From assembly GCA_016290195.1 (NCBI GenBank), contig JAEETF010000016.1, positions 12,879-76,878 of the forward strand: a stretch of DNA of 64,000 nucleotides, given 5' to 3'. Below the pieces are notes generated by a model. That model saw only the letters and a list, made by a program, of their open reading frames with translations. It searched no databases and was not told the DNA's origin. This DNA is from Bacilli bacterium. GTDB lineage: Bacteria > Bacillota_I > Bacilli_A > RF39 > UBA660. Shown here piece after piece: positions 15,082-55,707 of the stretch (the stretch's first letter is position 1; every line of letters begins with the position of its first letter). The translations under genes and the position numbers were made by a program.

Positions 15082-15243
15082 CATTTTTGCTTTACAAAAT
15101 ATAGAAAAATACAAATTTGTGAAATTTTACTTAAAATTATAAATATTACTTTTTAAATTATAAAAGTAATAAAATTGCAAGATAATGTTATTTTTCGACA
15201 AAATTACTATTAATGTATATAAATGTAAATGAAAGGATTAAAA

Positions 15244-15576
15244 ATGAAAAAATATATGAAAGATTATATTAATAAAATAGATGAATTATTAAATAAAAAT
15301 GAAAAGATTAATAATGAAATTATATCAGAGCATTTAATTAAAATTAGTTTTTTTCAGCATGAAAGATTAATACATTTATTAGTAACACTTTTTTATGCAT
15401 TATTTGTCTTTATATTTTTAGCTTTTTCTATATGGATAACATATCAATTTTTAATAGTTGAATTAATACTATTAGTATTTTTAGGTTTTTATATTAAACA
15501 TTATTTCTTTTTAGAAAATGGTGTTCAATATATGTATAAACAATATGATAAAATGAAAAATAAGTTGACAAAATAA
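15244..15576 (+). CDS. hypothetical small two-TM membrane protein
   Basis: RBS 'gaaagga' before ATG 15244; two hydrophobic helices. Confidence 0.4.
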   Translation: MKKYMKDYINKIDELLNKNEKINNEIISEHLIKISFFQHERLIHLLVTLFYALFVFIFLAFSIWITYQFLIVELILLVFLGFYIKHYFFLENGVQYMYKQYDKMKNKLTK

Positions 15577-15625
15577 ACTATGTATGATAATTTAGTTATG
15601 AATTTGAAGTGAAAGGAGTGAGAAA

Positions 15626-15709
15626 ATGAAGAAATTTTATTGTTTTTATAATTATGTAGTATTGAGTAAAGATAAGTGGAAAGGAGTTTCTTCATTTTTC
15701 ACTTGTTAA
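15626..15709 (+). CDS. 27-codon upstream ORF (MKKFYCFYNYVVLSKDKWKGVSSFFTC): candidate leader peptide or exported peptide
   Basis: Strong RBS 'gaaaggagtgag' 6 nt upstream. Contains an internal SD-like 'ggaaaggag'. Its stop lies 6 nt before a hairpin. Confidence 0.35.
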   Translation: MKKFYCFYNYVVLSKDKWKGVSSFFTC

Positions 15710-15715
15710 CTATGC

Positions 15716-15746
15716 AGACTACATAATATATGTAGTCTTTTATTTT
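15716..15746 (+). terminator. intrinsic terminator or attenuator between the upstream ORF and the ABC exporter gene
   Basis: Stem 'agactacat'/'atgtagtct' with loop 'aatat', then 'tttatttt'; only ~10 nt before the exporter RBS. Confidence 0.5.
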
Positions 15747-15756
15747 GGGAGGTATT

Positions 15757-17487
15757 ATGAAAAATTTAAGAGAAATAAAACCTCTAATAAAATTTATTGA
15801 TGAAAAGGGAAAACTTATTTTTGCTAGTATTATGATTTTTTTATCAGGTATAGTAGGAATATGTTCTGGCTATTTAAATGGTGCTGCTATTGAATCTATA
15901 ACTAATATGGATGTTAAAATGGCATTAATATATTTATTAATTTATTTTATTTTAGAAATTACTTTTGATGGAGTATTTATTCAATGTGCAAATGCATCAT
16001 TATATAAAATTGAAAGTAAAATTACACGAAAATTAGGTTATGAAACATATAAAAAGACACTAGATTTACCATCTGAGGCATTTGAAGTACATACATCTGG
16101 TGAATTTATAAATCGTATCACTGGTGATGCTGATTGCTTAAGTTTTGCATTTGGTCGTCTTTTACATATGTTTTCTGAATTAATTGCGGCATTAATTATT
16201 ATTGTATATGTCTTTATTAATTCATGGATTATTGGATTAGAAATAATATGTTTCTTAATTATATTTTTTATAGTTATTAAGAAATATAATCCAGTTGTTG
16301 AAAAAATTCATAAAGATCGAAAAGCAGGACAAGATAAGTTTGCTTCTTTAACAAATGAATCAATTAGGGGTATAAGAGAAATAAAAACATTAGGTATTAA
16401 AAATAATGTCTTAAATGATATGAAAGAAATAATTAAGATTATTTTTGCTACTTCTAAAAAAGAAATAGATATTAATAATAAATTTAATATTATTACAAGA
16501 GTTCTTAGAACTATGTTAGAAGTAGGAACATTTATAATCTGTGTTATTTTACTTTATTATGGAAAAGTAACACTTACATTTTTTGTTGCTATGACATATT
16601 ATGTTTATAGATATATGTGGTTAATTGAAAATTTAAATGATTTAACAATTACATACCAAAAAACAATAGTATCTATTAAACGTGTTAATGAAATAGTATT
16701 AAATAAATTATATGAAGATGAAAAATTTGGTAATATAGAACTTACTAATAATAAAGGTATAATTGAATTTAAAAATGTTTCATTTTCATATCCTAATAAA
16801 GTTGAAACATTAAATAATTTTAATTTAAAATTAGAGCCACATAAAAAGATTGCGATTATTGGTAAATCTGGCCAAGGAAAATCAACATTATTTAATTTAC
16901 TTACTAGAATTTTTGATGTAAAATCTGGTGAAATATTATTAGATGGTGTTAATATTAAAGATTTAACTGAAAAAAATCTTCGAAATCAAATATCTATAAT
17001 AAGACAAGAACCTTTTGTATTTAACAGGTCCATAAAAGAAAATTTTGAAATTGTACGTAAAAACATAACTCTTGAAGAAATAAGAAAGTATTGTAAAGAT
17101 GCTTATATTGATGAATATATCATGAGTTTAGATGATAAGTATGATACTATTCTTGGAGAAGGTGGTATTAATTTATCTGGAGTTCAAAAACAAAGACTTG
17201 CTATTGCACGTACATTATCTAAAGGGGGAAAAGTAATTTTATTTGATGAAGCAACTAGTGCACTTGATAATGAATCACAAGAATATATTAAGAAGGCAAT
17301 AGATAAACTTGTAAAAAATCATACTGTAGTTATAATTGCTCATCGTTTATCAACAATTGAAGATGCCGATATTATTTATGTGATAGATAAAGGCCAAGTT
17401 GTATCATCAGGAACACATAATGAATTATTAAAAACAAGTAAAATTTATCAAAAACTTTATGAAAAAGAAGCTTTAAATTCGAAATAA
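15757..17487 (+). CDS. ABC exporter, fused transmembrane and ATP-binding domains (MsbA/BmrA-like half transporter)
   Basis: Walker A 'GKSGQGKST', signature 'LSGVQKQR', Walker B 'ILFDEATSALD', H-loop 'IAHRL'. RBS 'gggaggt'. Confidence 0.85.
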   Translation: MKNLREIKPLIKFIDEKGKLIFASIMIFLSGIVGICSGYLNGAAIESITNMDVKMALIYLLIYFILEITFDGVFIQCANASLYKIESKITRKLGYETYKKTLDLPSEAFEVHTSGEFINRITGDADCLSFAFGRLLHMFSELIAALIIIVYVFINSWIIGLEIICFLIIFFIVIKKYNPVVEKIHKDRKAGQDKFASLTNESIRGIREIKTLGIKNNVLNDMKEIIKIIFATSKKEIDINNKFNIITRVLRTMLEVGTFIICVILLYYGKVTLTFFVAMTYYVYRYMWLIENLNDLTITYQKTIVSIKRVNEIVLNKLYEDEKFGNIELTNNKGIIEFKNVSFSYPNKVETLNNFNLKLEPHKKIAIIGKSGQGKSTLFNLLTRIFDVKSGEILLDGVNIKDLTEKNLRNQISIIRQEPFVFNRSIKENFEIVRKNITLEEIRKYCKDAYIDEYIMSLDDKYDTILGEGGINLSGVQKQRLAIARTLSKGGKVILFDEATSALDNESQEYIKKAIDKLVKNHTVVIIAHRLSTIEDADIIYVIDKGQVVSSGTHNELLKTSKIYQKLYEKEALNSK

Positions 17488-17510
17488 AAAGATAAAATTA
17501 TCTTTTTATT
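17487..17510 (+). terminator. intrinsic terminator after the ABC gene
   Basis: 'aaagataaaattatcttttt'. Confidence 0.5.
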
Positions 17511-17606
17511 TTTTTACTTTTAATGTAAAGTATAATGTAAAATAATTTAAAAAATATATGATAATAATAATAATAATGATATAATGACCATAGAGTAGGT
17601 GAACTT

Positions 17607-18764
17607 ATGCTTAAACGATATAAGAAAAGCTATTTAGTTATAAATATAATCCTTATATTATTGCTTATTTTTACTTGCATAAATCTTTGGGCTTTAAAAA
17701 ATACTGGTTATTGGTTTTTAATTGCAACAATTGCAATACCAACAGCCATATTAATAGGAATATATGGCTATGAGGGTAAAAGTCGAAGGTTTAAATATGA
17801 ATTATCATTTTATGTATTCATATATACAATAGGTTTTTTGATAATGACATATTCACTTGGATTAATATTTGGATTTACTGGTAATGTTTATAAGCTTAAT
17901 TTAACCAATTTAGTTAATAACATTATTCCTTATGTGATGTTAATTCTTGTAACTGAAGTATTGCGATACGAGATTATTCGTAAAGGTGATGGTTCGACAT
18001 TAGCATACATATTAATTGTAATTATTTTAACAAATATTGATTTGAGTTTATTTCGTGATACATATGACTTATCTAATGGCGATGGTCAAATAAAATATAT
18101 TTGTGTTATTGCCATTCCTAGTTTATTTAAAAATGTAATATTGATGTATTATACTAAACTTGGTGGAGTATATCCTAGTTTAATATATAGGTTTCTGTTA
18201 GATTTAAAATTAGTAATTGTACCAATATTTCCAAATTTTGGCCTATATTTTGAATGTATTATTAATACTGCTTTACCAGTATTAATGATGTTTCTAATTC
18301 ATTTTAATTTGAAGAAATTTGAAGATGAAAATGAGAATATTAATATAAAAGAATCAAAAAAATATAAACTAGTTGTGATTATTATTATGCTTTCTATTGT
18401 TATTTTTGTTAATATTTTAGTAAGTTGTACACTCAAATATGGAATGATTGCCATTGGATCTAATAGTATGGTTCCAGAATTTGCTAGAGGAGATGCAATT
18501 ATATATGAAAAAGTTAATGCTAGTACTAATTTAGAAATAGGACAAATAATAATATTCAAAAAGGATAATAAAACAGTTGTTCACAGATTAATACAAATAG
18601 TGGACGTGGGTAATAACGAATATATTTATTATACTAAGGGAGATGCAAATGATAATCCCGATGGTTATCCAATTGAAAGAAAAAATATTATAGGAGTTTG
18701 TAAATTTAAAATTAAATATATAGGGTTTCCATCAGTAGTTTTAGGAGAACTTATACATAGATAG
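17607..18764 (+). CDS. fusion of a ~250-aa polytopic membrane domain of unknown family to a C-terminal SipW-type (ER/archaeal-type) signal peptidase I domain
   Basis: C-terminal TM anchor then 'GSNSMVPEF' (catalytic Ser), 'TVVHRLIQI' (His), 'KGDANDNPD'. N-terminal part has ~7 hydrophobic helices. RBS 'aggtga'. Confidence 0.7.
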   Translation: MLKRYKKSYLVINIILILLLIFTCINLWALKNTGYWFLIATIAIPTAILIGIYGYEGKSRRFKYELSFYVFIYTIGFLIMTYSLGLIFGFTGNVYKLNLTNLVNNIIPYVMLILVTEVLRYEIIRKGDGSTLAYILIVIILTNIDLSLFRDTYDLSNGDGQIKYICVIAIPSLFKNVILMYYTKLGGVYPSLIYRFLLDLKLVIVPIFPNFGLYFECIINTALPVLMMFLIHFNLKKFEDENENINIKESKKYKLVVIIIMLSIVIFVNILVSCTLKYGMIAIGSNSMVPEFARGDAIIYEKVNASTNLEIGQIIIFKKDNKTVVHRLIQIVDVGNNEYIYYTKGDANDNPDGYPIERKNIIGVCKFKIKYIGFPSVVLGELIHR

Positions 18765-18773
18765 GAGGTTGTT

Positions 18774-19799
18774 ATGAAAAAAATAAAAGATAATATAAAA
18801 ATAATTATTTGTTGTTTTTTAATACTTGCATTGAGTATATCTTTTATTTTGGAGTTTAGCTACGGAAAAAATAACTTATCCCGTAAAGGTATTTCTTTTA
18901 GTAAAGAAGCTGAGCTAAATTATGTAACATATCTAAAAAACAATAATCATTACAGTAGTGATTTTCTTGAAAATGATTATAATTATGTCGCTAATTTAGT
19001 TGATTATTTTAATTTGGATTTCAATTATTCATATGTTTTAAGTGAAAATATTGATTATAAATTGGATTATGAAATTGTAGGTTATTTAGAAATATATGAT
19101 AGCGATAATATGGCCAAGCCTATTGAAAAGAAAGAATATAATATTTTAGAAAAAGTGACGGAAGATAAAAAAGGTCAAGTTATTAATGTAGCACTACATA
19201 ATCAAAAAATAAATTATGAAACATATAGTAGTGTTGTTCAAATGTGGAAGAAAGAATTAAATCCAAATGCTAATTTAAAAGTTGTATTCAAAGTAAATTG
19301 GCAAGGATATTCAAAAGAACTAGAAAAAGAAATTTCAGATAGTTATACTAGTACTTTTGAAATTCCTTTATCAGAAAAAATAATTTCTATTTCAAAACCA
19401 TCAAATCATAATGAAACAGGATATATATATAGTAAACAATCTTTAGGAATTGTATATGTTGGATTAATGATTTTGACTGGAATATGTTTAATTTTAGTTA
19501 TTACTTATTTAATTATAACGATGATTAAAATAAATAAATCTAAATCTAAATATGAACAAAAAATTAAAAAAATCTTGCGAGAATTTGACCGTGCTATTAC
19601 TGAAGCTAAAGGTAAATTTAAAATTGAAAGAGGTGAGAAAGCAATTGAAGTTAGTGAATTTATGGAGTTGATGGATGTTCACGATAACTTACATGAACCT
19701 ATAATTTACTATAAAACTAGTGTGAATAAATGTACTTTTGTTGTTAGAAATGGCAAAGATATTTATTATACTATTATTAAAAGGGATGAGTATGAATAG
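18774..19799 (+). CDS. hypothetical bitopic membrane protein (N-terminal TM, ~190-aa extracytoplasmic domain, second TM, ~95-aa cytoplasmic tail)
   Basis: RBS 'aggagg'; 9 nt after the peptidase gene, so probably co-transcribed. Confidence 0.5.
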   Translation: MKKIKDNIKIIICCFLILALSISFILEFSYGKNNLSRKGISFSKEAELNYVTYLKNNNHYSSDFLENDYNYVANLVDYFNLDFNYSYVLSENIDYKLDYEIVGYLEIYDSDNMAKPIEKKEYNILEKVTEDKKGQVINVALHNQKINYETYSSVVQMWKKELNPNANLKVVFKVNWQGYSKELEKEISDSYTSTFEIPLSEKIISISKPSNHNETGYIYSKQSLGIVYVGLMILTGICLILVITYLIITMIKINKSKSKYEQKIKKILREFDRAITEAKGKFKIERGEKAIEVSEFMELMDVHDNLHEPIIYYKTSVNKCTFVVRNGKDIYYTIIKRDEYE

Positions 19800-19884
19800 T
19801 TTACACTATTTTACTATATGAATAAAAAAAATCTTGCTAATATAAATATTTTATGTATAATTAAAATAGAGAGGAGTTTAATAA

Positions 19885-20466
19885 ATGAAAAATAATACTA
19901 AATTTTTATATGGAATTGTTGCCGTTGCATTTTTATTATCTGTAATAGGTATTTCTGTCGGATTTGCATCTATGTCATCTAGTTTAGATGTTAAAGGACA
20001 AGCTGAGGTTGTACCTGCAAGCTGGAAAATTAAATTTAAAGATTTAAGTTCTGCAACTATTAATGGTAGTGCTACAGTTGTAACAGCACCACAAATTGAA
20101 TCTGATACTCATATTGGTGATTATGATGTAACATTATCAATGCCAGGAGATTCAGTTGTTTATACTTTTAAAGTTGCTAATAATGGAACTATCGATGCAG
20201 AATTAAGTGATTATACATTTGCTACACCAACAATTACTGGTACTGGTGATACAGCTGCTGCAGATGCTGCTATTGTTTCAAGTAATTTAGTTTATACTTT
20301 AACTTATGCTGATGGTACAGCTATTCAAAAAAATGATGAGTTATTAAAAAATACTGAAAAAACTTTAAAATTAACAGTAGCATATGATGCTAATGCAACA
20401 GAATTACCTACAAGTCAAGTAGATATCTCTGATATGGATATTACATTTACTTATTCTCAAAAATAA
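19885..20466 (+). CDS. secreted TasA/CalY/camelysin-family (Peptidase_M73-like) protein with a SipW-cognate-type signal peptide
   Basis: Signal 'FLYGIVAVAFLLSVIGISVGFASMSS'. 'LSMPGDSVVYTFKVANNGTIDAEL' resembles the TasA/CalY 'LKPGDS..KEF.L.N.GSL.IK' block. Beta-rich and Thr/Ala-rich. Confidence 0.6.
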   Translation: MKNNTKFLYGIVAVAFLLSVIGISVGFASMSSSLDVKGQAEVVPASWKIKFKDLSSATINGSATVVTAPQIESDTHIGDYDVTLSMPGDSVVYTFKVANNGTIDAELSDYTFATPTITGTGDTAAADAAIVSSNLVYTLTYADGTAIQKNDELLKNTEKTLKLTVAYDANATELPTSQVDISDMDITFTYSQK

Positions 20467-20486: not shown

Positions 20487-20515
20487 ATAAGGCTAGTTTT
20501 ACTAGTCTTTTTATT
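20487..20515 (+). terminator. intrinsic terminator
   Basis: 'ggctagttttactagtc' plus 'ttttta'. Confidence 0.4.
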
Positions 20516-20574
20516 TTATTGAAATTTTAAATAAAAAATGTATAATATATATAAGTTATGAAGGGAGAGATTAT

Positions 20575-20970
20575 ATGAAAAGAAAGGGTTTAAAAGTACT
20601 TAATGGAGTTAAGTGGCTATATGTTATTGGTGCTATATTAGCTGTTATTTTTGCGGTTGTAGTTGGCTGTTTAGATAAAATACCAGATGAACTTTTATCA
20701 ATAGTTCCAAAAGATACAAAAATGGATGCCAAGACATTTTTAGTAGCATATTTTGCATGTAATGCAGCTATTGAAGTTTGGTTCTTTTGGTTATTAAATA
20801 GATTTATTAATGGTAAAAGTAATGGTACATTTTATATATTCTTATTAATACTTAGTTTAATTGGAAGTATAGTAACTCTATTTTCATCTACATCTATTTC
20901 TACTATAAATATTATATTAGATGTAATAGTATTATATTTTGCAATATTAGCTCGAAAAGATACAAAATAA
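20575..20970 (+). CDS. hypothetical small membrane protein
   Basis: RBS 'gaagggagag'; three or four TM helices. Confidence 0.4.
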   Translation: MKRKGLKVLNGVKWLYVIGAILAVIFAVVVGCLDKIPDELLSIVPKDTKMDAKTFLVAYFACNAAIEVWFFWLLNRFINGKSNGTFYIFLLILSLIGSIVTLFSSTSISTINIILDVIVLYFAILARKDTK

Positions 20971-26277: not shown

Positions 26278-27363
26278 ATGGACATTGTAATTATTATTTT
26301 ACTTGTATGTGTAATTATTTTAAATATATTATGTCTAGTTAAAAATATTAATGAATCTAATATAACTGAAAGATTAGGTAAGATGGAAACAACAGTTATT
26401 AAAGAATTAGGTGATTTTAAAAGTGATTTAAGTAATCATTTAAATAATAGTTTTGTTAATATGAATGATCGTATAGATACTAGATTAAGATTAATAGATG
26501 ATAAAGTAAATGAAAGATTAGATCAAAACTTTGAAAAGACTAATAAAACATTCACTTCAGTTTTAGAACGTTTATCTAAAATAGATGAAGCTCAAAAAAA
26601 GATAGATCATTTATCTAGTGATATAGTATCACTTCAAAGTGTTCTTACTGATAAAAAAACAAGAGGTATTTTTGGAGAAATAAATTTAAAACATATTATG
26701 AGTAATGTGTTTGGTGAGAATAATGATAAAATATACAAACTTCAATATTCTTTTGACAATAATACTATAGCTGATTGTGTTTTATTTGCACCAGAACCAC
26801 TTGGAGTAATAGCTATTGATTCAAAATTTCCACTTGAAAATTATCAATTAATGGTTGATAAAAATAATAGTGATATGGTAAGAATGCAAGCCGAAAAGAA
26901 CTTTAAAATTGATATGAAAAAACATATAGATGCCATTAGTAGTAAATATATCATAAATGGTGTTACATCTGATCAAGCTATTTTATTTTTACCAGCAGAA
27001 GCTATTTTTGCAGAAATAAATGCTTATCATAATGATATTATTGATTATGCTTATAAAAAGAAAGTATGGATTACTTCCCCAACTACACTTATTAGTACTT
27101 TAACAACTATTCAAGTAATTATTAAAAATATGGAAAGAGATAAGTATGCTAGTATAATTCATAAAGAATTAAATTTACTTTCTGAAGAATTTAGACGTTA
27201 TAAAGATAGATGGGATAAACTTTCTAAAAGTATTGATAGTGTAAGTAAAGATGTCAAAGATATTCATAATACAACTGAAAAAATAACTAAAAGATTTAAT
27301 TCTATTAATCAAGTAGAATTAGATGATCATGTTTTAATAGAAGAAGGTGACTGTAATGACTAA
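26278..27363 (+). CDS. rmuC: DNA recombination protein RmuC
   Basis: N-terminal TM plus coiled coil, then 'RGIFGEINLKHIM', 'CVLFAPEPLGVIAIDSKFPLENY' RmuC core. Confidence 0.75.
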   Translation: MDIVIIILLVCVIILNILCLVKNINESNITERLGKMETTVIKELGDFKSDLSNHLNNSFVNMNDRIDTRLRLIDDKVNERLDQNFEKTNKTFTSVLERLSKIDEAQKKIDHLSSDIVSLQSVLTDKKTRGIFGEINLKHIMSNVFGENNDKIYKLQYSFDNNTIADCVLFAPEPLGVIAIDSKFPLENYQLMVDKNNSDMVRMQAEKNFKIDMKKHIDAISSKYIINGVTSDQAILFLPAEAIFAEINAYHNDIIDYAYKKKVWITSPTTLISTLTTIQVIIKNMERDKYASIIHKELNLLSEEFRRYKDRWDKLSKSIDSVSKDVKDIHNTTEKITKRFNSINQVELDDHVLIEEGDCND

Positions 27364-28354
27364 AAAAGGATTTACGTTAGTAGAATTAATAGGCGTAATT
27401 GCTATATTAGGAGTACTTGCTGTATTTGCTATACCAGCTCTTACTAAAACTCTTAAAAAAAGCTCTGATAAAGAATATGAAGAGTTTGTTAAAAATATAA
27501 CACTTGCAGCCGAAAATTATTTTCATAGTGAGACAGATGGTAAAATAATGACTAATTCTAAAAAATTTATTAAAGTACAGGATTTAAAAGATGCAGGATA
27601 TTTAAAAAATAATGTTAATCCACTCACTAATACTAATGTATCTAATGATGCCACAGTAATAATTACTAAAAATACAGATGGTGTCGAAAAGTATGAATTT
27701 GTTGATAAAGATGTAACAATTTATGGTTATGTATCTGGAAAAGATATTCATTATGACGGTTATACTGAACCACAAAATGGATATCTAATAGATTTAACTT
27801 CTAACCATAATAATGCTGAAATGAATAACGTAACTTGGAATAATAGTTTTTATAATTTTAATGGAAATTCATATGCAAAATTTAATTCTATTAATACATT
27901 GCCAGCATCTTATTCTTTAGTTATTAAAGCGCCATATCAAGAATCTAATGTTGTGTTTGGTGATATAAATACTAATGCAGCATTTGGTTTCTATAGCTTA
28001 GATAATAAAATGTATGGCATCGCAAGTTCTGGAACTGTTCAATCTGCAAAATATAAAATGTTTGATTTGACTAATTATCCTTTTGATCAAATTACAAGTA
28101 TCCAACTTGTTTATACTTCAAGTAATATAGAACTTTATATTAACGGAAAATCAGTAACAAGTGTTAATAATATTAACTACTGGACGTGGACAGATAACTA
28201 TAGTTATTTAGGTGGAAGACCACAAAATGGAGGACTAAATTCACTATTTAGTGGAAATATATATAGTTTTATAGCTTATCATAAAGCTTTAACAACTGAT
28301 GAAATTAAACAAAATTATGAAGTAGATAAATATCGTTTTGGTGCAGGAGAGTAA
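27356..28354 (+). CDS. type IV prepilin-like protein with a C-terminal LamG/concanavalin-like jelly-roll domain
   Basis: 'MTKKG|FTLVELIGVIAILGVLA' prepilin cleavage motif (Gly-1, Phe+1, Glu+5). C-terminal '...GNIYSFIAYHKALTTDEIKQNY' resembles LamG domain ends. RBS 'gaaggtga'. Confidence 0.7.
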   Translation: MTKKGFTLVELIGVIAILGVLAVFAIPALTKTLKKSSDKEYEEFVKNITLAAENYFHSETDGKIMTNSKKFIKVQDLKDAGYLKNNVNPLTNTNVSNDATVIITKNTDGVEKYEFVDKDVTIYGYVSGKDIHYDGYTEPQNGYLIDLTSNHNNAEMNNVTWNNSFYNFNGNSYAKFNSINTLPASYSLVIKAPYQESNVVFGDINTNAAFGFYSLDNKMYGIASSGTVQSAKYKMFDLTNYPFDQITSIQLVYTSSNIELYINGKSVTSVNNINYWTWTDNYSYLGGRPQNGGLNSLFSGNIYSFIAYHKALTTDEIKQNYEVDKYRFGAGE

Positions 28355-33544: not shown

Positions 33545-33750
33545 GTAGATTTAGTGAGGAAAAATATAAAGTAATTAATTATTTGGACATATAGAAAATT
33601 AGTGTTTGATGGAAACTAATCAATAATAATTAATGAATTACCTATTTGGAGCTAAAACGTATTTCTGCGTTAAAGAATTAAGTGCATAAGATTCTTATGA
33701 ATTAAGGTGGTACCGCGAGTTTTCGTCCTTAAATTTATAGGGATTTTTTT
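33545..33750 (+). ncRNA. T-box riboswitch leader
   Basis: Stem I base 'AGTGAGGA'. Conserved T-box sequence 'AAGGTGGTACCGCG' at 33704-33717, followed by a weak hairpin and a long U-run before the HAD-deoC-tyrS operon. Confidence 0.55.
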
Positions 33751-50083: not shown

Positions 50084-50161
50084 CGGGCGATTAGCTCAGT
50101 TGGTTAGAGCACCTGCCTTACAAGCAGGGGGTCATAGGTTCGAGTCCTATATCGCCCACCA
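50084..50161 (+). tRNA. tRNA-Val (anticodon TAC)
   Basis: Acceptor stem gggcgat/atcgccc; anticodon loop 'ctTACaa'; T-arm 'ggttcgagtcc'; 3' CCA encoded. Confidence 0.85.
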
Positions 50162-50165
50162 TTAT

Positions 50166-50241
<76 letters not shown>

Positions 50242-50245
50242 TTTT

Positions 50246-50329
50246 GGAGGGATAGCGAAGTGGCCAAACGCGGCAGACTGTAAATCTGTTCCTTCGGGTT
50301 CGATGGTTCAAATCCATCTCCCTCCACCA
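50246..50329 (+). tRNA. tRNA-Tyr (anticodon GTA), class II with long variable arm
   Basis: Acceptor ggaggga/tccctcc; anticodon loop 'ctGTAaa'; variable arm 'ccttcgggt'; CCA encoded. Confidence 0.85.
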
Positions 50330-54881: not shown

Positions 54882-55286
54882 TTATATACAACTTACAAAA
54901 GTATCATCTAGGCACTTAATTGCCCCAAGACAATCTAAATTAACTGTGAAAAAAGAATTAGTAGCAACATAAGGATTAGGTGATTCTGTGTCAGGATTAG
55001 GTGCTAATACACGACAAGTACAACAACAACCTTCTTGAGCCTCAACTCTAAAAACACTACTTGTATCATCAGTGCCATTTAAAGTATATGGCATAGTTAA
55101 TAGAGTATTATTGCAACATGTATATAATGTAATAGGCCTTGTATTATAACATCCATTTGTTAAACAAGGTCCTAAAAAAGGTTTATCACAAGAGTCTAGT
55201 GTATCATCAATTACTTGACTTCTTTTTTGTAAGTTAATAATCGTACATAAGATGTTACTTAAGCCAGAACAGTTATTATTTTCCAT
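54882..55286 (-). CDS. CotY/CotZ/ExsY-family cysteine-rich spore coat/exosporium protein (paralog 3, downstream of tandem pair)
   Basis: 'FRVEAQEGCCCTCRVLAPNPD' and 'CLGAIKCL'. Strong RBS AAGGAGG. Only 10 nt after paralog 2. Confidence 0.65.
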   Translation of the reverse strand: MENNNCSGLSNILCTIINLQKRSQVIDDTLDSCDKPFLGPCLTNGCYNTRPITLYTCCNNTLLTMPYTLNGTDDTSSVFRVEAQEGCCCTCRVLAPNPDTESPNPYVATNSFFTVNLDCLGAIKCLDDTFVSCI

Positions 55287-55296
55287 TTATCCTCCT

Positions 55297-55707
55297 TTAT
55301 AAACAACTGATATATGTATCAGCTAAACATCTAATAGCACAAGTACAATCTAAATTTATACTAACAAAATCATTAGTTGTAACATAAGGATTAGGTGAGG
55401 TTTGATCAGGATTAGGAGCTAATACACGACAAGTGCAAGAGCATCCATCAACTTTCTCAACTCTTAGTACTGATGAAGTACCTACAACTTTTTCTTCTTC
55501 ATAAGTTGTAGAGTAGGGAAATGAGAGTACAGAACCAGTACAATTATATAAACTTAGTGGTCTTGTGTTATATGAAAGACAGCTATTTTGTCTTCCTAAA
55601 ATGGGACTATCACAAGTATTTTGGATATTTTCCACTTTATTACAATTATTTTGTAGAATGACAATAGTATTCAATATATCACTTATACAACAATTGTTAT
55701 TTGACAT
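55297..55707 (-). CDS. CotY/CotZ/ExsY-family cysteine-rich spore coat/exosporium protein (paralog 2, first of tandem pair)
   Basis: 'LRVEKVDGCSCTCRVLAPNPD' and 'CTCAIRCL'. RBS 'aaaggggtgg'. Confidence 0.65.
   Translation of the reverse strand: MSNNNCCISDILNTIVILQNNCNKVENIQNTCDSPILGRQNSCLSYNTRPLSLYNCTGSVLSFPYSTTYEEEKVVGTSSVLRVEKVDGCSCTCRVLAPNPDQTSPNPYVTTNDFVSINLDCTCAIRCLADTYISCL

Follow-up and report, generated by a model that had tools for sequence, protein, structure and literature searches.

A conserved three-gene cassette for a candidate AbpX-type surface fibre in a gut Bacillota

What is made by a run of five co-directional genes in a spore-forming gut Bacillota, and do all five belong to the same system? 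An earlier note on this DNA had read them (a leader ORF, an ABC exporter, a signal peptidase fused to a membrane domain, a membrane protein and a TasA/CalY-like secreted protein, here called P193) as one coherent module for fibre or surface-layer secretion. All five ORFs are indeed present on the plus strand of the window (the whole 64-kb stretch of DNA analysed here) at the positions listed in Table 1, and they are genuine genes, since each has many full-length homologues and their exact products are found among public gene calls. For the ABC gene, the start at 15757 that gives 576 aa is the call on record at NCBI. A fibre or matrix function is also the best reading, and we put at about two in three the probability that positions 17607-20466 hold a three-gene cassette whose product is secreted and polymerises by itself into a surface or matrix fibre, one that belongs to the TasA superfamily and stands nearest to the AbpX type.

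Table 1. Positions of the cassette, its neighbouring ABC unit and their parts within the window
Feature	Position	Strand	Description and source
uORF	15626-15709	+	27 aa; leader peptide of the ABC gene; from the ORF list
Hairpin and T-run	15716-15738	+	10 bp stem followed by TTTTATTTT; lies after the uORF and ahead of the ABC RBS; terminator scan
ABC half-transporter	15757-17487 (alternative start 15745)	+	TMD-NBD, 576 aa
Fused peptidase, N-terminal membrane domain	17607-18353	+	residues 1-249, eight helices
Fused peptidase, TM anchor (residues 250-273) and ER/archaeal-type signal peptidase I domain (274-385)	18354-18764	+	
Catalytic Ser287	18465-18467	+	
Catalytic His326	18582-18584	+	
DUF5305 membrane protein	18774-19799	+	341 aa
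P193 signal peptide	19885-19968	+	residues 1-28, ends G26-F27-A28; hydropathy
P193 N-terminal extension of the mature protein	19969-20028	+	residues 29-48; predicted donor strand
P193 beta-sandwich core	20029-20466	+	residues 49-193; predicted fibre subunit body
Terminator-like hairpin closing the cassette	20489-20509	+	terminator scan

Judged by gene order across relatives, the conserved unit is three genes (peptidase, DUF5305 and P193) and not five. Synteny of this trio extends to 13 related loci, which come from uncultured Bacilli, Erysipelotrichaceae and "Tenericutes", in the order peptidase, DUF5305, P193-like in L001-L004 and L007-L013, and with the subunit gene placed upstream of the peptidase in L014 and L015; the DUF5305 gene always lies directly downstream of the peptidase in related loci. 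Locus L006 is truncated by a contig edge, and at least 19 further contigs, recognised by their identical lengths, are common to the P193 and peptidase match lists. The genomic surroundings of the cassette are unrelated across other genomes, and its immediate neighbours in the window are housekeeping genes (Sua5, YdjC, Zip and PFL). Most relatives have a second gene, for a protein of 650-860 aa in which adhesin repeats come after a signal, cleavage site, donor strand and pilin-like domain of the P193 type; adhesin-bearing paralogues of this sort lie downstream, and the tips of members in relatives are BspA-LRR, DUF285/PARCEL, Flg_new or lipase domains. Since the window has no such second adhesin-bearing gene, it represents a minimal version of the cassette; no anchor, tip, minor subunit or regulator was found in its 64 kb. 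The P193 family itself is large (5,544 representative clusters at 50% identity), yet neither Pfam nor NCBIfam has a model for it and hardly any member is named.

The five-gene module therefore holds for the broadly kept peptidase, DUF5305 and P193 genes, but not for the uORF and ABC genes, which adjoin the trio in the window's clade (L008, L009 and L010) only. An ABC orthologue is found beside the trio in L008 (88% identity) and L010 (76%) alone; there is none in L001-L004, L007 or L011-L015, the remaining loci being uninformative, and it is absent from every relative with a peptidase identity of 58% or less. The transporter matches PF00664 and PF00005 and is ABCB/MsbA/Sav1866-like, its nearest PDB entries being ABCB1 and MsbA. 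All of its NCBIfam matches lie below the family cut-offs, with the peptide-exporter scores far below, and it has no C39 peptidase domain, as the TIGR01193 and TIGR03796 matches begin at profile positions 144 and 156, past that domain. The uORF (89% identical in L008), its RBS and the downstream hairpin are kept in L008 and L010, neither arm of the stem varies across three loci, and the leader RNA folds with a z of -4.1. This hairpin is probably a leader-peptide attenuator. An RBS-uORF-terminator-RBS leader is typical of drug-responsive efflux genes, as in bmrCD/BmrB of B. subtilis.

It may still be asked whether all five genes form one module, with the ABC transporter dedicated to fibre biogenesis and exporting, for example, the subunit, a modifying lipid or glycan, or the cleaved signal peptides. 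The genes are contiguous and co-directional, the stretch from the ABC gene to the peptidase gene gave no strong terminator score, and the block TM115-uORF-ABC-peptidase-DUF5305-P193 is intact in L008 and L010; as both flanks differ between these two loci, the TM115-ABC block accompanies the trio in two flanking contexts, which leaves room for a functional link. We nevertheless consider such a module unlikely, because the orthologue is missing beside the trio in the ten loci named above, the ABC gene carries its own RBS-uORF-terminator-RBS leader and is separated from the peptidase gene by a 119-bp AT-rich gap, and P193 has a classical Sec signal while the transporter has neither a C39 peptidase nor another substrate-recognition domain. 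Between the window and L008, moreover, the ABC protein is 88% identical and the peptidase and DUF5305 proteins only 76%, which argues for different selective regimes. The dedicated exporter of the earlier note is thus not borne out: a generic ABCB/MsbA-type protein that is not conserved with the cassette, it is most likely, together with its uORF, a separately controlled, attenuator-regulated exporter and merely a neighbour.

The assignment of the peptidase as SipW-type stands. Its domain is of the ER/archaeal type, scoring 88.9 bits with TIGR02228 in the NCBIfam scan (cut-off 51.85), and the residues S287, H326, D346 and D352 are invariant, giving a Ser-His and not a Ser-Lys pair. The best solved relative is SEC11A/C (E ~1e-21), while P-type signal peptidases match only at E of 0.02 or more. 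The score with the Bacillus SipW equivalog NF046067 is 58 bits against a cut-off of 190. By these profile matches, the enzyme is a SipW-class peptidase but not a SipW orthologue. Its fusion to a large membrane domain is no artefact, as it is found as a single ORF of 374-391 aa in 13 of 13 loci holding the peptidase, and more than 100 database proteins carry the N-domain and peptidase in one ORF. From the structure prediction, which covered the fused peptidase and the P193 monomer, residues 1-249 adopt a CPBP/Rce1-like eight-helix fold from which the catalytic histidines are absent. PF02517 gave no match at E <= 1 in 33 members of the peptidase family, the CPBP motifs EExxxR, FxxxH and HxxxN are not found (E117 and R120 are the sole invariant positions), and residues 1-250 lack any conserved His. 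The CPBP-like domain is probably non-catalytic. No report of a CPBP-fold domain fused to a serine peptidase was found in the searchable literature.

The protein encoded next matches PF17231 with an E of 6.7e-15 and 55.6 bits, the cut-off being 29. Hydropathy places its TM segments at residues 4-31 and 222-256; the first is the N-terminal TM or signal anchor, and the second divides an extracellular domain from a C-terminal domain in the cytoplasm. DUF5305 proteins (TafG) have been proposed as accessory proteins of SPase I (PMC11821415, PMC12337348, bioRxiv 10.64898/2026.01.04.697558), and by analogy the protein here is a putative accessory subunit of the peptidase.

P193, which the earlier note called TasA/CalY-like, cannot be placed in the TasA/CalY family, since it has no Peptidase_M73 (PF12389) match even at E <= 1; weak, sub-threshold matches to this model appear in 4 of 40 diverse P193 relatives (best E 0.0015). 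The SipW-cognate signal model TIGR04088 does not match P193 at E <= 1 in the NCBIfam scan either. The similarity of the predicted fold to TasA is weak and not specific. The TasA/CalY-like block quoted earlier, LSMPGDSVVYTFKVANNGTIDAEL, corresponds to residues 84-107, and its PGD...NNGTIDA part (87-105) does hold the one local TasA match, PGD...NNG, but the hhalign alignment with TasA spans only 21 columns. With AbpX, a profile built on five closely related sequences, hhalign aligned the P193 family over 156 columns at 21% identity (probability 96.2%, E 2.5e-9), and the mature part alone still gave a probability of 87.4% (E 3.7e-6). These two scores (62.4 and 40.9) compare with ~12 for reversed, at most 17.6 for column-shuffled and at most 19.6 for unrelated protein controls. 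Such homology is undetectable by phmmer or BLAST-level searches. On this profile-profile evidence, P193 is related to TasA at the superfamily level, through AbpX.

The long hydrophobic signal with a small-residue cleavage end, also claimed before, is confirmed as a Sec-type signal, and it carries a TasA-like small-aromatic-Ala motif. Among 131 family members, position -3 is A/G, 95% have F/Y at -2 and 92% have Ala at -1; the site aligns residue for residue with T-Y-A of AbpX and resembles T-W-A of TasA. Behind it, residues 29-48 have pLDDT values below 50 in the monomer model, compared with above 90 for the core (49-193), yet are as conserved as that core. Their hydrophobic residues alternate at +2, +6, +8, +10, +12 and +14, in the register of AbpX W2/L6/L8/A10/I12, and the family keeps this pattern (+6 L in 95%, +8 I/V in 95%, +10 G, +12 A). 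P193 has no Cys pair; the consensus of the wider family has two Cys.

These features also bear on whether P193 could instead act as a monomer, secreted or at the surface (a beta-sandwich adhesin of the CARDB/DUF11-like kind, for instance, or a cell-surface coat protein), that needs the special peptidase and forms no donor-strand polymer. An extension conserved like the core but unstructured in the monomer model is hard to reconcile with this view, as are its hydrophobic register, identical to that of a solved donor strand, the reuse of exactly the P193 N-terminus ahead of the adhesin domains in larger paralogues, and the family-level homology to a protein proven to polymerise; we hold a monomer to be quite improbable. 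Very improbable indeed is a spore-surface or coat-associated structure made during sporulation, as TasA (CotN) was first described: the host is spore-forming (Spo0A and three CotZ-family genes in the window), L011 and L012 have a Coat_F gene at ~4.5 kb from their cassette, and PDB 5of1 titles TasA 'spore coat-associated protein N', but the window, said to be rich in spore-coat genes, has only those three CotZ-family genes among ~75, two of them at 54882-55707 on the opposite strand and ~34 kb off, one cassette carrier is labelled 'Tenericutes', and neither the housekeeping neighbours nor the unrelated contexts elsewhere, nor anything else, tie the locus to the spore surface.

For the preferred reading, a self-polymerising fibre, the following route can be proposed from sequence and homology. 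Pre-P193 would be exported via Sec by its 28-residue signal peptide. Trp at -2 of TasA was shown experimentally to be poor for the housekeeping signal peptidase LepB (PMC10269814), and the aromatic -2 residue in G-F-A may likewise make pre-P193 a poor housekeeping substrate, so that cleavage after Ala28 would fall to the dedicated Ser287/His326 peptidase. This enzyme would act as a membrane complex, the fused CPBP-like domain and DUF5305 serving as accessory or scaffold parts, as the analogy of TafD/TafG, the AbpX loci and SpdC-SagB suggests. In the released 165-aa acidic subunit, the amphipathic S29-V42 extension is the presumed donor strand, as in AbpX and TasA, and would complete the beta-sandwich of the next subunit to give fibrils without a chaperone.

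TasA-superfamily fibres are emerging as a cross-domain route to biofilm matrices and pili that needs neither chaperones nor sortases, and the locus extends the same machinery to uncultured gut Bacillota, spore formers of low GC content. It suggests one concrete means by which these poorly known lineages could adhere to surfaces or to one another, and its compact three-gene form is suited to testing the roles of the multi-TM peptidase and of DUF5305. We can also entertain, as a speculative and rather doubtful extension, that the P193 family and its adhesin-bearing paralogues constitute a major unrecognised class of sortase-independent, donor-strand adhesive pili, distributed among uncultured Bacilli, Erysipelotrichia and Mollicutes-like bacteria of gut and rumen. 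Their assembly would be the work of a bacterial 'mini signal-peptidase complex', whose CPBP-ER-peptidase fusion and DUF5305 protein would choose the substrate and couple cleavage to assembly or membrane anchoring, and the window's clade would have drawn the attenuator-controlled ABC transporter into the system.

Among known systems, the sipW-bsaABCRSD operon of the Bacillota anaerobe Clostridium perfringens (PMC7395162) also has a terminator after the subunit gene, and a small secreted protein there depends on the SipW homologue both to be secreted and to assemble into polymers that are very stable and sortase-independent; a later preprint reports intermolecular isopeptide bonds in this system. 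Unlike the window, the operon has a two-component system, a conventional small SipW and no DUF5305, and BsaA is taken to belong to a different family from P193. In tapA-sipW-tasA of B. subtilis (8aur, PMC9674648), a dedicated ER-type signal peptidase again stands beside a secreted beta-sandwich subunit, and TasA shares with P193 the aromatic P2 residue of the cleavage site, a PGD...F.F.NNG block and a presumed assembly by donor-strand exchange. However, SipW is small (~190 aa, two TM helices) compared with the 385-aa fusion here, TapA stands in place of DUF5305, and mature TasA has 234 aa against 165 aa in P193. The haloarchaeal tafi loci (PMC11821415, PMC12337348) likewise place a signal peptidase, TafD, and the DUF5305 protein TafG by donor-strand pilins, together with tip and anchor subunits, but they use Tat signals in archaeal hosts, and TafD has four TM segments with the peptidase at its N-terminus.

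The closest system is that of the AbpX loci of Pyrodictium abyssi and its bacterial and archaeal homologues, Bacillota included, which combine a multi-TM SPase I, DUF5305 and a TasA-superfamily subunit (bioRxiv 10.64898/2026.01.04.697558). Since this January 2026 preprint and the tafi work (PMC11821415) already hold the combination, the locus is not the previously undescribed variant it had been taken for. Both mature subunits are of ~165 aa with a pI of ~4 (P193: 165 aa, pI 4.17, 13.3% D+E; AbpX: 163 aa, pI 4.05, 14.7%) and share the small-aromatic-Ala site, an amphipathic N-terminal donor strand in register and the core block PGx...F.[LV].N.GTI, although it takes a profile-profile comparison to detect the likeness. 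The aromatic 'clamp' at +2 of AbpX is not kept (Met in P193; L/M/F in the family, with F/Y in 27 of 131), nor is its Ca-binding acidic residue at +4 (Ser/Thr/Gln in the family, Glu in 8 of 131), so that the Ca-dependent mechanism may not hold here. The dedicated SPase of the AbpX loci, too, is a TIGR02228 enzyme of ~380 aa, of which a multi-TM N-domain takes up ~250 aa (residue 264 opens the peptidase domain in P. abyssi, residue 266 here). These loci also share the DUF5305 accessory gene, and they have extra subunits with tips or anchors like those of the window's relatives; the SLH or LPXTG anchors and regulators that the preprint gives for bacterial loci are absent here, and the two SPase N-domains do not align in sequence. 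The preprint notes a 'ten-TM SPase I' without explaining it, and the CPBP/Rce1-like fold gives a testable lead on its function. Rce1 (4cad) and the inactive scaffold SpdC/LyrA (6u0o) resemble the N-domain in fold without a sequence-model match, but the two His-containing catalytic motifs of the Rce1 type are absent from the window's N-domain, which is itself fused to a serine peptidase. We regard the locus as a new, divergent example of this kind of system.

All five forward-strand ORFs proposed by the earlier note are present in the ORF list (see the table), in DNA of ~25% G+C. The products of 576, 385, 341 and 193 residues are NCBI gene calls on the record, and since each of the four has many full-length homologues, these are genes and not chance ORFs. 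Promoter-like matches showed no excess (56 found, 63 expected from shuffles), and have therefore not been used as evidence.

Features of the window and of related loci (L-numbers are handles of fetched loci, each with its own coordinates)
Feature	Position	Strand	Remark
TM115	15229-15576		115-aa membrane protein, upstream of uORF
Conserved ABC leader	15600-15760; L008:6297-6545; L010:7962-8160
uORF	15626-15709	+	27 aa
Terminator-like hairpin	15716-15738		uORF/ABC interval; terminator scan
ABC half-transporter	15757-17487	+	576 aa; in-frame TTG at 15745
Fused peptidase	17607-18764	+	385 aa
DUF5305 membrane protein	18774-19799	+	341 aa
P193	19885-20466	+	193 aa
Terminator-like hairpin	20489-20509		3′ of P193; terminator scan
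Promoter-like match	20519-20546		before TM131
TM131	20575-20970		131-aa multi-TM protein
332-aa protein	27356-28354		downstream of RmuC; orthologue L008:17646-18635
T-box leader	33548-33733
Three tRNA genes	50085-50326
Two adjacent CotZ-family spore-coat genes	54882-55707	-	~34 kb from cassette
Paralogues directly 3′ of P193 orthologue	L001:7368-9350; L003:3903-5867; L004:10600-12603; L010:12941-15517; L011:10956-13001; L013:10954-12900
Orphan P193-like gene	L005:9974-10561		195 aa; among proS, dnaG, sigA

P193, the secreted protein proposed as fibre subunit, had been described as TasA/CalY-like, the motif quoted being residues 84–107. As to family membership this was wrong: P193 matches neither the Peptidase_M73 (TasA/camelysin) HMM nor the SipW-cognate signal model, and the absence of any significant Pfam or NCBIfam match, or of any match among PDB sequences, excludes direct membership. 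A type IV prepilin or class III signal is also excluded, because no Gly/Ala precedes the hydrophobic stretch, there is no Glu at +5 and the locus lacks a prepilin peptidase. Database searching yielded 176 homologues of P193, all unnamed, and a profile search gave 5,544 clusters at E ≤ 1e-3 among 1.84 billion representatives.

We have compared a profile of 131 P193-family sequences with AbpX, the fibril subunit of Pyrodictium abyssi (sequence from the preprint supplement, verified against PDB 9sj2 and 9rhp), and with TasA of Bacillus subtilis (verified against 8aur). The single AbpX sequence was matched over 170 columns (probability 90%, E 1.6e-6, score 44.6), and an AbpX profile of five close Pyrodictium homologues only over 156 columns (96.2%, E 2.5e-9, score 62.4); with signal peptides removed, the latter comparison gave 87.4% over 82 columns (E 3.7e-6, score 40.9). 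The TasA match (19.5%, E 0.0012, score 28.3) covered 21 columns, in the PGD...NNG block only. Control scores were ~12 on reversal, at most 17.6 for 40 column-shuffled profiles and at most 19.6 for eight unrelated window proteins.

In the alignment, the P193 cleavage region G26-F27-A28/S29 falls on T-Y-A/Q1 of AbpX, and M30, L34, V36, G38 and A40 fall on the AbpX donor-strand residues W2, L6, L8, A10 and I12. Of the 131 members, 95% have Phe/Tyr at −2 and 92% have Ala at −1. The 20-residue N-terminal extension, with Leu at +6 (95%), Ile/Val at +8 (95%) and Gly at +10 (89%), is conserved no less than the core. The AlphaFold monomer leaves this extension disordered (pLDDT 35–45; core residues 49–192, >90), and disorder in the model combined with conservation is what characterizes a donor strand. 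The mature proteins are similar in size and acidity (P193: 165 aa, pI 4.17, 13.3% Asp+Glu; AbpX: 163 aa, pI 4.05, 14.7% Asp+Glu). Two hallmarks of AbpX are lacking, at +2, where the aromatic residue of AbpX is Met in P193 and aromatic in just 27 of the 131 relatives, and at +4, where the acidic residue of AbpX is Ser/Thr/Gln in the P193 family. Foldseek with the P193 monomer ranked the TasA fibre second (E 0.012), and weak Peptidase_M73 matches occurred in 4 of 40 diverse relatives, both being compatible and non-diagnostic. Cys is conserved at two sites of the wider family consensus (…TPTCxG…VCxNLxYTL…), the second aligning with an AbpX disulfide cysteine; both are lost in the window's subfamily.

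The claim of a SipW-class peptidase has been borne out. The C-terminus of the fused protein (~255–379) scores 88.9 bits with TIGR02228 (archaeal/ER-type SPase I; cut-off 51.85), and its best solved relatives are human SEC11C (E 2e-21) and SEC11A (E 8e-21) whereas P-type bacterial SPases give E ≥ 0.02, which places the enzyme in the SipW class; the Bacillus SipW equivalog model scores 58 against a cut-off of 190. The catalytic Ser (GSxS287M), His326-Arg327 and G345-D346-x-N348...D352 are invariant among 33 aligned homologues, the most distant at 29% identity. The fusion is kept full length across homologues (374–391 aa in the loci bearing all three genes), ruling out a frameshift or assembly artefact. 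In the AF2 model (pLDDT 83), residues 7–273 span nine long helices, followed by a beta-rich peptidase domain (278–369) and a short C-terminal helix. The N-domain has the invariant residues Y82, G85, G89, E117, R120, P206 and P209. Since the CPBP Pfam model matched no peptidase member searched and the N-domain alignment contains no conserved His, an active CPBP protease is unlikely, and a scaffold is the more likely role of this domain. SpdC is such a scaffold, for the single-pass enzyme SagB (title of PDB 6u0o). The predicted CPBP-like fold of the membrane domain is a lead worth following. The literature searched contained no paper combining CPBP with SipW. The 341-aa product is a DUF5305 protein (55.6 bits; cut-off 29) with hydrophobic segments at 4–31 and 222–256.

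Fifteen related loci (L001–L015) were fetched and their gene content determined by tblastn and HMM searches. Relatives are from rumen and gut MAGs that carry the labels Bacilli, Erysipelotrichaceae, Bacillales or 'Tenericutes'. The order peptidase, DUF5305, P193-like is found in L001–L004 and L007–L013, and in L014 and L015 the trio is complete, the subunit gene there lying 5′ of the peptidase gene; the contig of L006 ends too early to show it. No peptidase or DUF5305 gene lies near the orphan P193-like gene of L005, a MAG labelled Muribaculaceae, yet its gene context resembles low-GC Bacillota, and the MAG may be mis-binned. TM131, encoded between P193 and Zip, can be ruled out as a module member: L008, collinear apart from this, lacks it and has Zip 23 bp after P193, which makes TM131 an insertion specific to the window's genome. 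The region's best promoter-like match (11/12) lies before TM131, such matches being not above shuffle expectation.

The module proposed by the earlier note stands for these three genes and, beyond the window's nearest relatives, fails for the uORF and ABC gene, and the role given there to a dedicated exporter has to be abandoned. The ABC protein is of a generic type (ABC_membrane and ABC_tran in Pfam, likeness to MsbA, HlyB and ABCB1); it reaches no NCBIfam cut-off, and the C39 peptidase domain that marks peptide exporters is missing. A functional link between the ABC block and the trio within the window's clade is unlikely. L010 does keep the block beside the trio although its flanks differ; however, among the fifteen loci the ABC orthologue, TM115 and the uORF/hairpin leader adjoin the trio only in L008, L009 and L010, the window's nearest relatives (peptidase identity 73–76%), and no adjoining orthologue occurs in any locus with peptidase identity ≤58%. 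The ABC gene also has its own leader, always accompanied by TM115 upstream, in which the order RBS, 27-aa uORF (MKKFYCF[YN]NYVV...), hairpin with invariant arms, T-run, second RBS and ABC start is kept in the window, L008 and L010 (RNA fold z = −4.1). From its sequence this looks like a ribosome-mediated transcription attenuator of the leader-peptide kind, marking the ABC gene as a separately regulated unit. A leader-peptide attenuator of the same anatomy controls bmrCD in B. subtilis. Between the window and L008, identity is 86–92% for ABC, PFL, YdjC and Zip, 76% for the peptidase and DUF5305, and 83% for P193; by this measure the cassette is evolving faster than its neighbours, as would be expected of surface-exposed machinery.

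Directly downstream of P193, L001, L003, L004, L010, L011/L012 and L013 have a gene for a product of 650–860 aa, whose N-terminus is almost identical to P193 in signal, cleavage site and predicted donor strand (IS[VI]GFS[AS][LM]STxLx[IV]NG) and is followed by a smaller P193-like (pilin-like) domain and surface repeats (Flg_new, DUF285). L002 has a comparable protein, the N-terminal likeness having been read in the other listed loci only. Further family members bear BspA-type LRR, DUF6273 or GDSL-lipase domains. These proteins look like subunits with an adhesin or enzyme attached, which would be cut by the same peptidase and enter the same polymer. No large paralogue gene is present in the window, L008 or L009, nor a second family member within the 64-kb window, so the window's locus is a minimal version. 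The size and adhesin diversity of a family without any Pfam/NCBIfam model is a second lead worth following.

The host, an uncultured Bacillota, is a spore former; the window encodes Spo0A and three CotZ-family proteins. The suggested spore-surface link was not borne out: the two CotZ genes that were placed lie far off on the opposite strand, and no evidence connects the cassette with the spore surface. Spo0A_C, LysM, Amidase_3 and D-Ala-D-Ala carboxypeptidase domains also occur in the window. The L008 orthologue of the 332-aa protein gives weak N_methyl (prepilin-type) and Laminin_G_3 matches, and the protein may be type IV pilin-like.

As to mechanism, pre-P193 would be exported via Sec. A Trp at P2 of TasA blocks the housekeeping SPase LepB experimentally (PMC10269814); the aromatic P2 residue of P193 would likewise bar housekeeping SPase, so that a dedicated ER-type enzyme would be needed. 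Ser287/His326 would then cut after Ala28, in a complex that includes DUF5305 and the CPBP-like domain fused to the peptidase. As in the homologous AbpX and TasA, polymerization would proceed without a chaperone, the N-terminal strand inserting into the next subunit. In C. perfringens, both secretion and polymerization of BsaA require SipW (PMC7395162).

Taken together, the earlier observation is largely sound, and its reading as a peptidase of the SipW class paired with a TasA-like fibre subunit holds in outline, apart from the family membership, ABC role and novelty claimed for it. A preprint of January 2026 describes a TasA-superfamily clade in archaea, Bacillota and Chloroflexota, whose AbpX loci combine a fibril subunit with a 'structurally distinct' ten-TM SPase I and a DUF5305 'SPase I accessory' (10.64898/2026.01.04.697558); its text contains no CPBP, Rce1 or SpdC. 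Profile alignment detected no homology linking the N-domain of the window peptidase to its counterpart in the AbpX-associated SPase of P. abyssi. The P. abyssi enzyme has 380 aa with its peptidase domain from residue 264, that of the window starting at 266, and the two peptidase domains align with an hhalign probability of 99%. The locus is thus not the previously undescribed system once supposed; it is a divergent, new example of the type of system described in 2025–2026.
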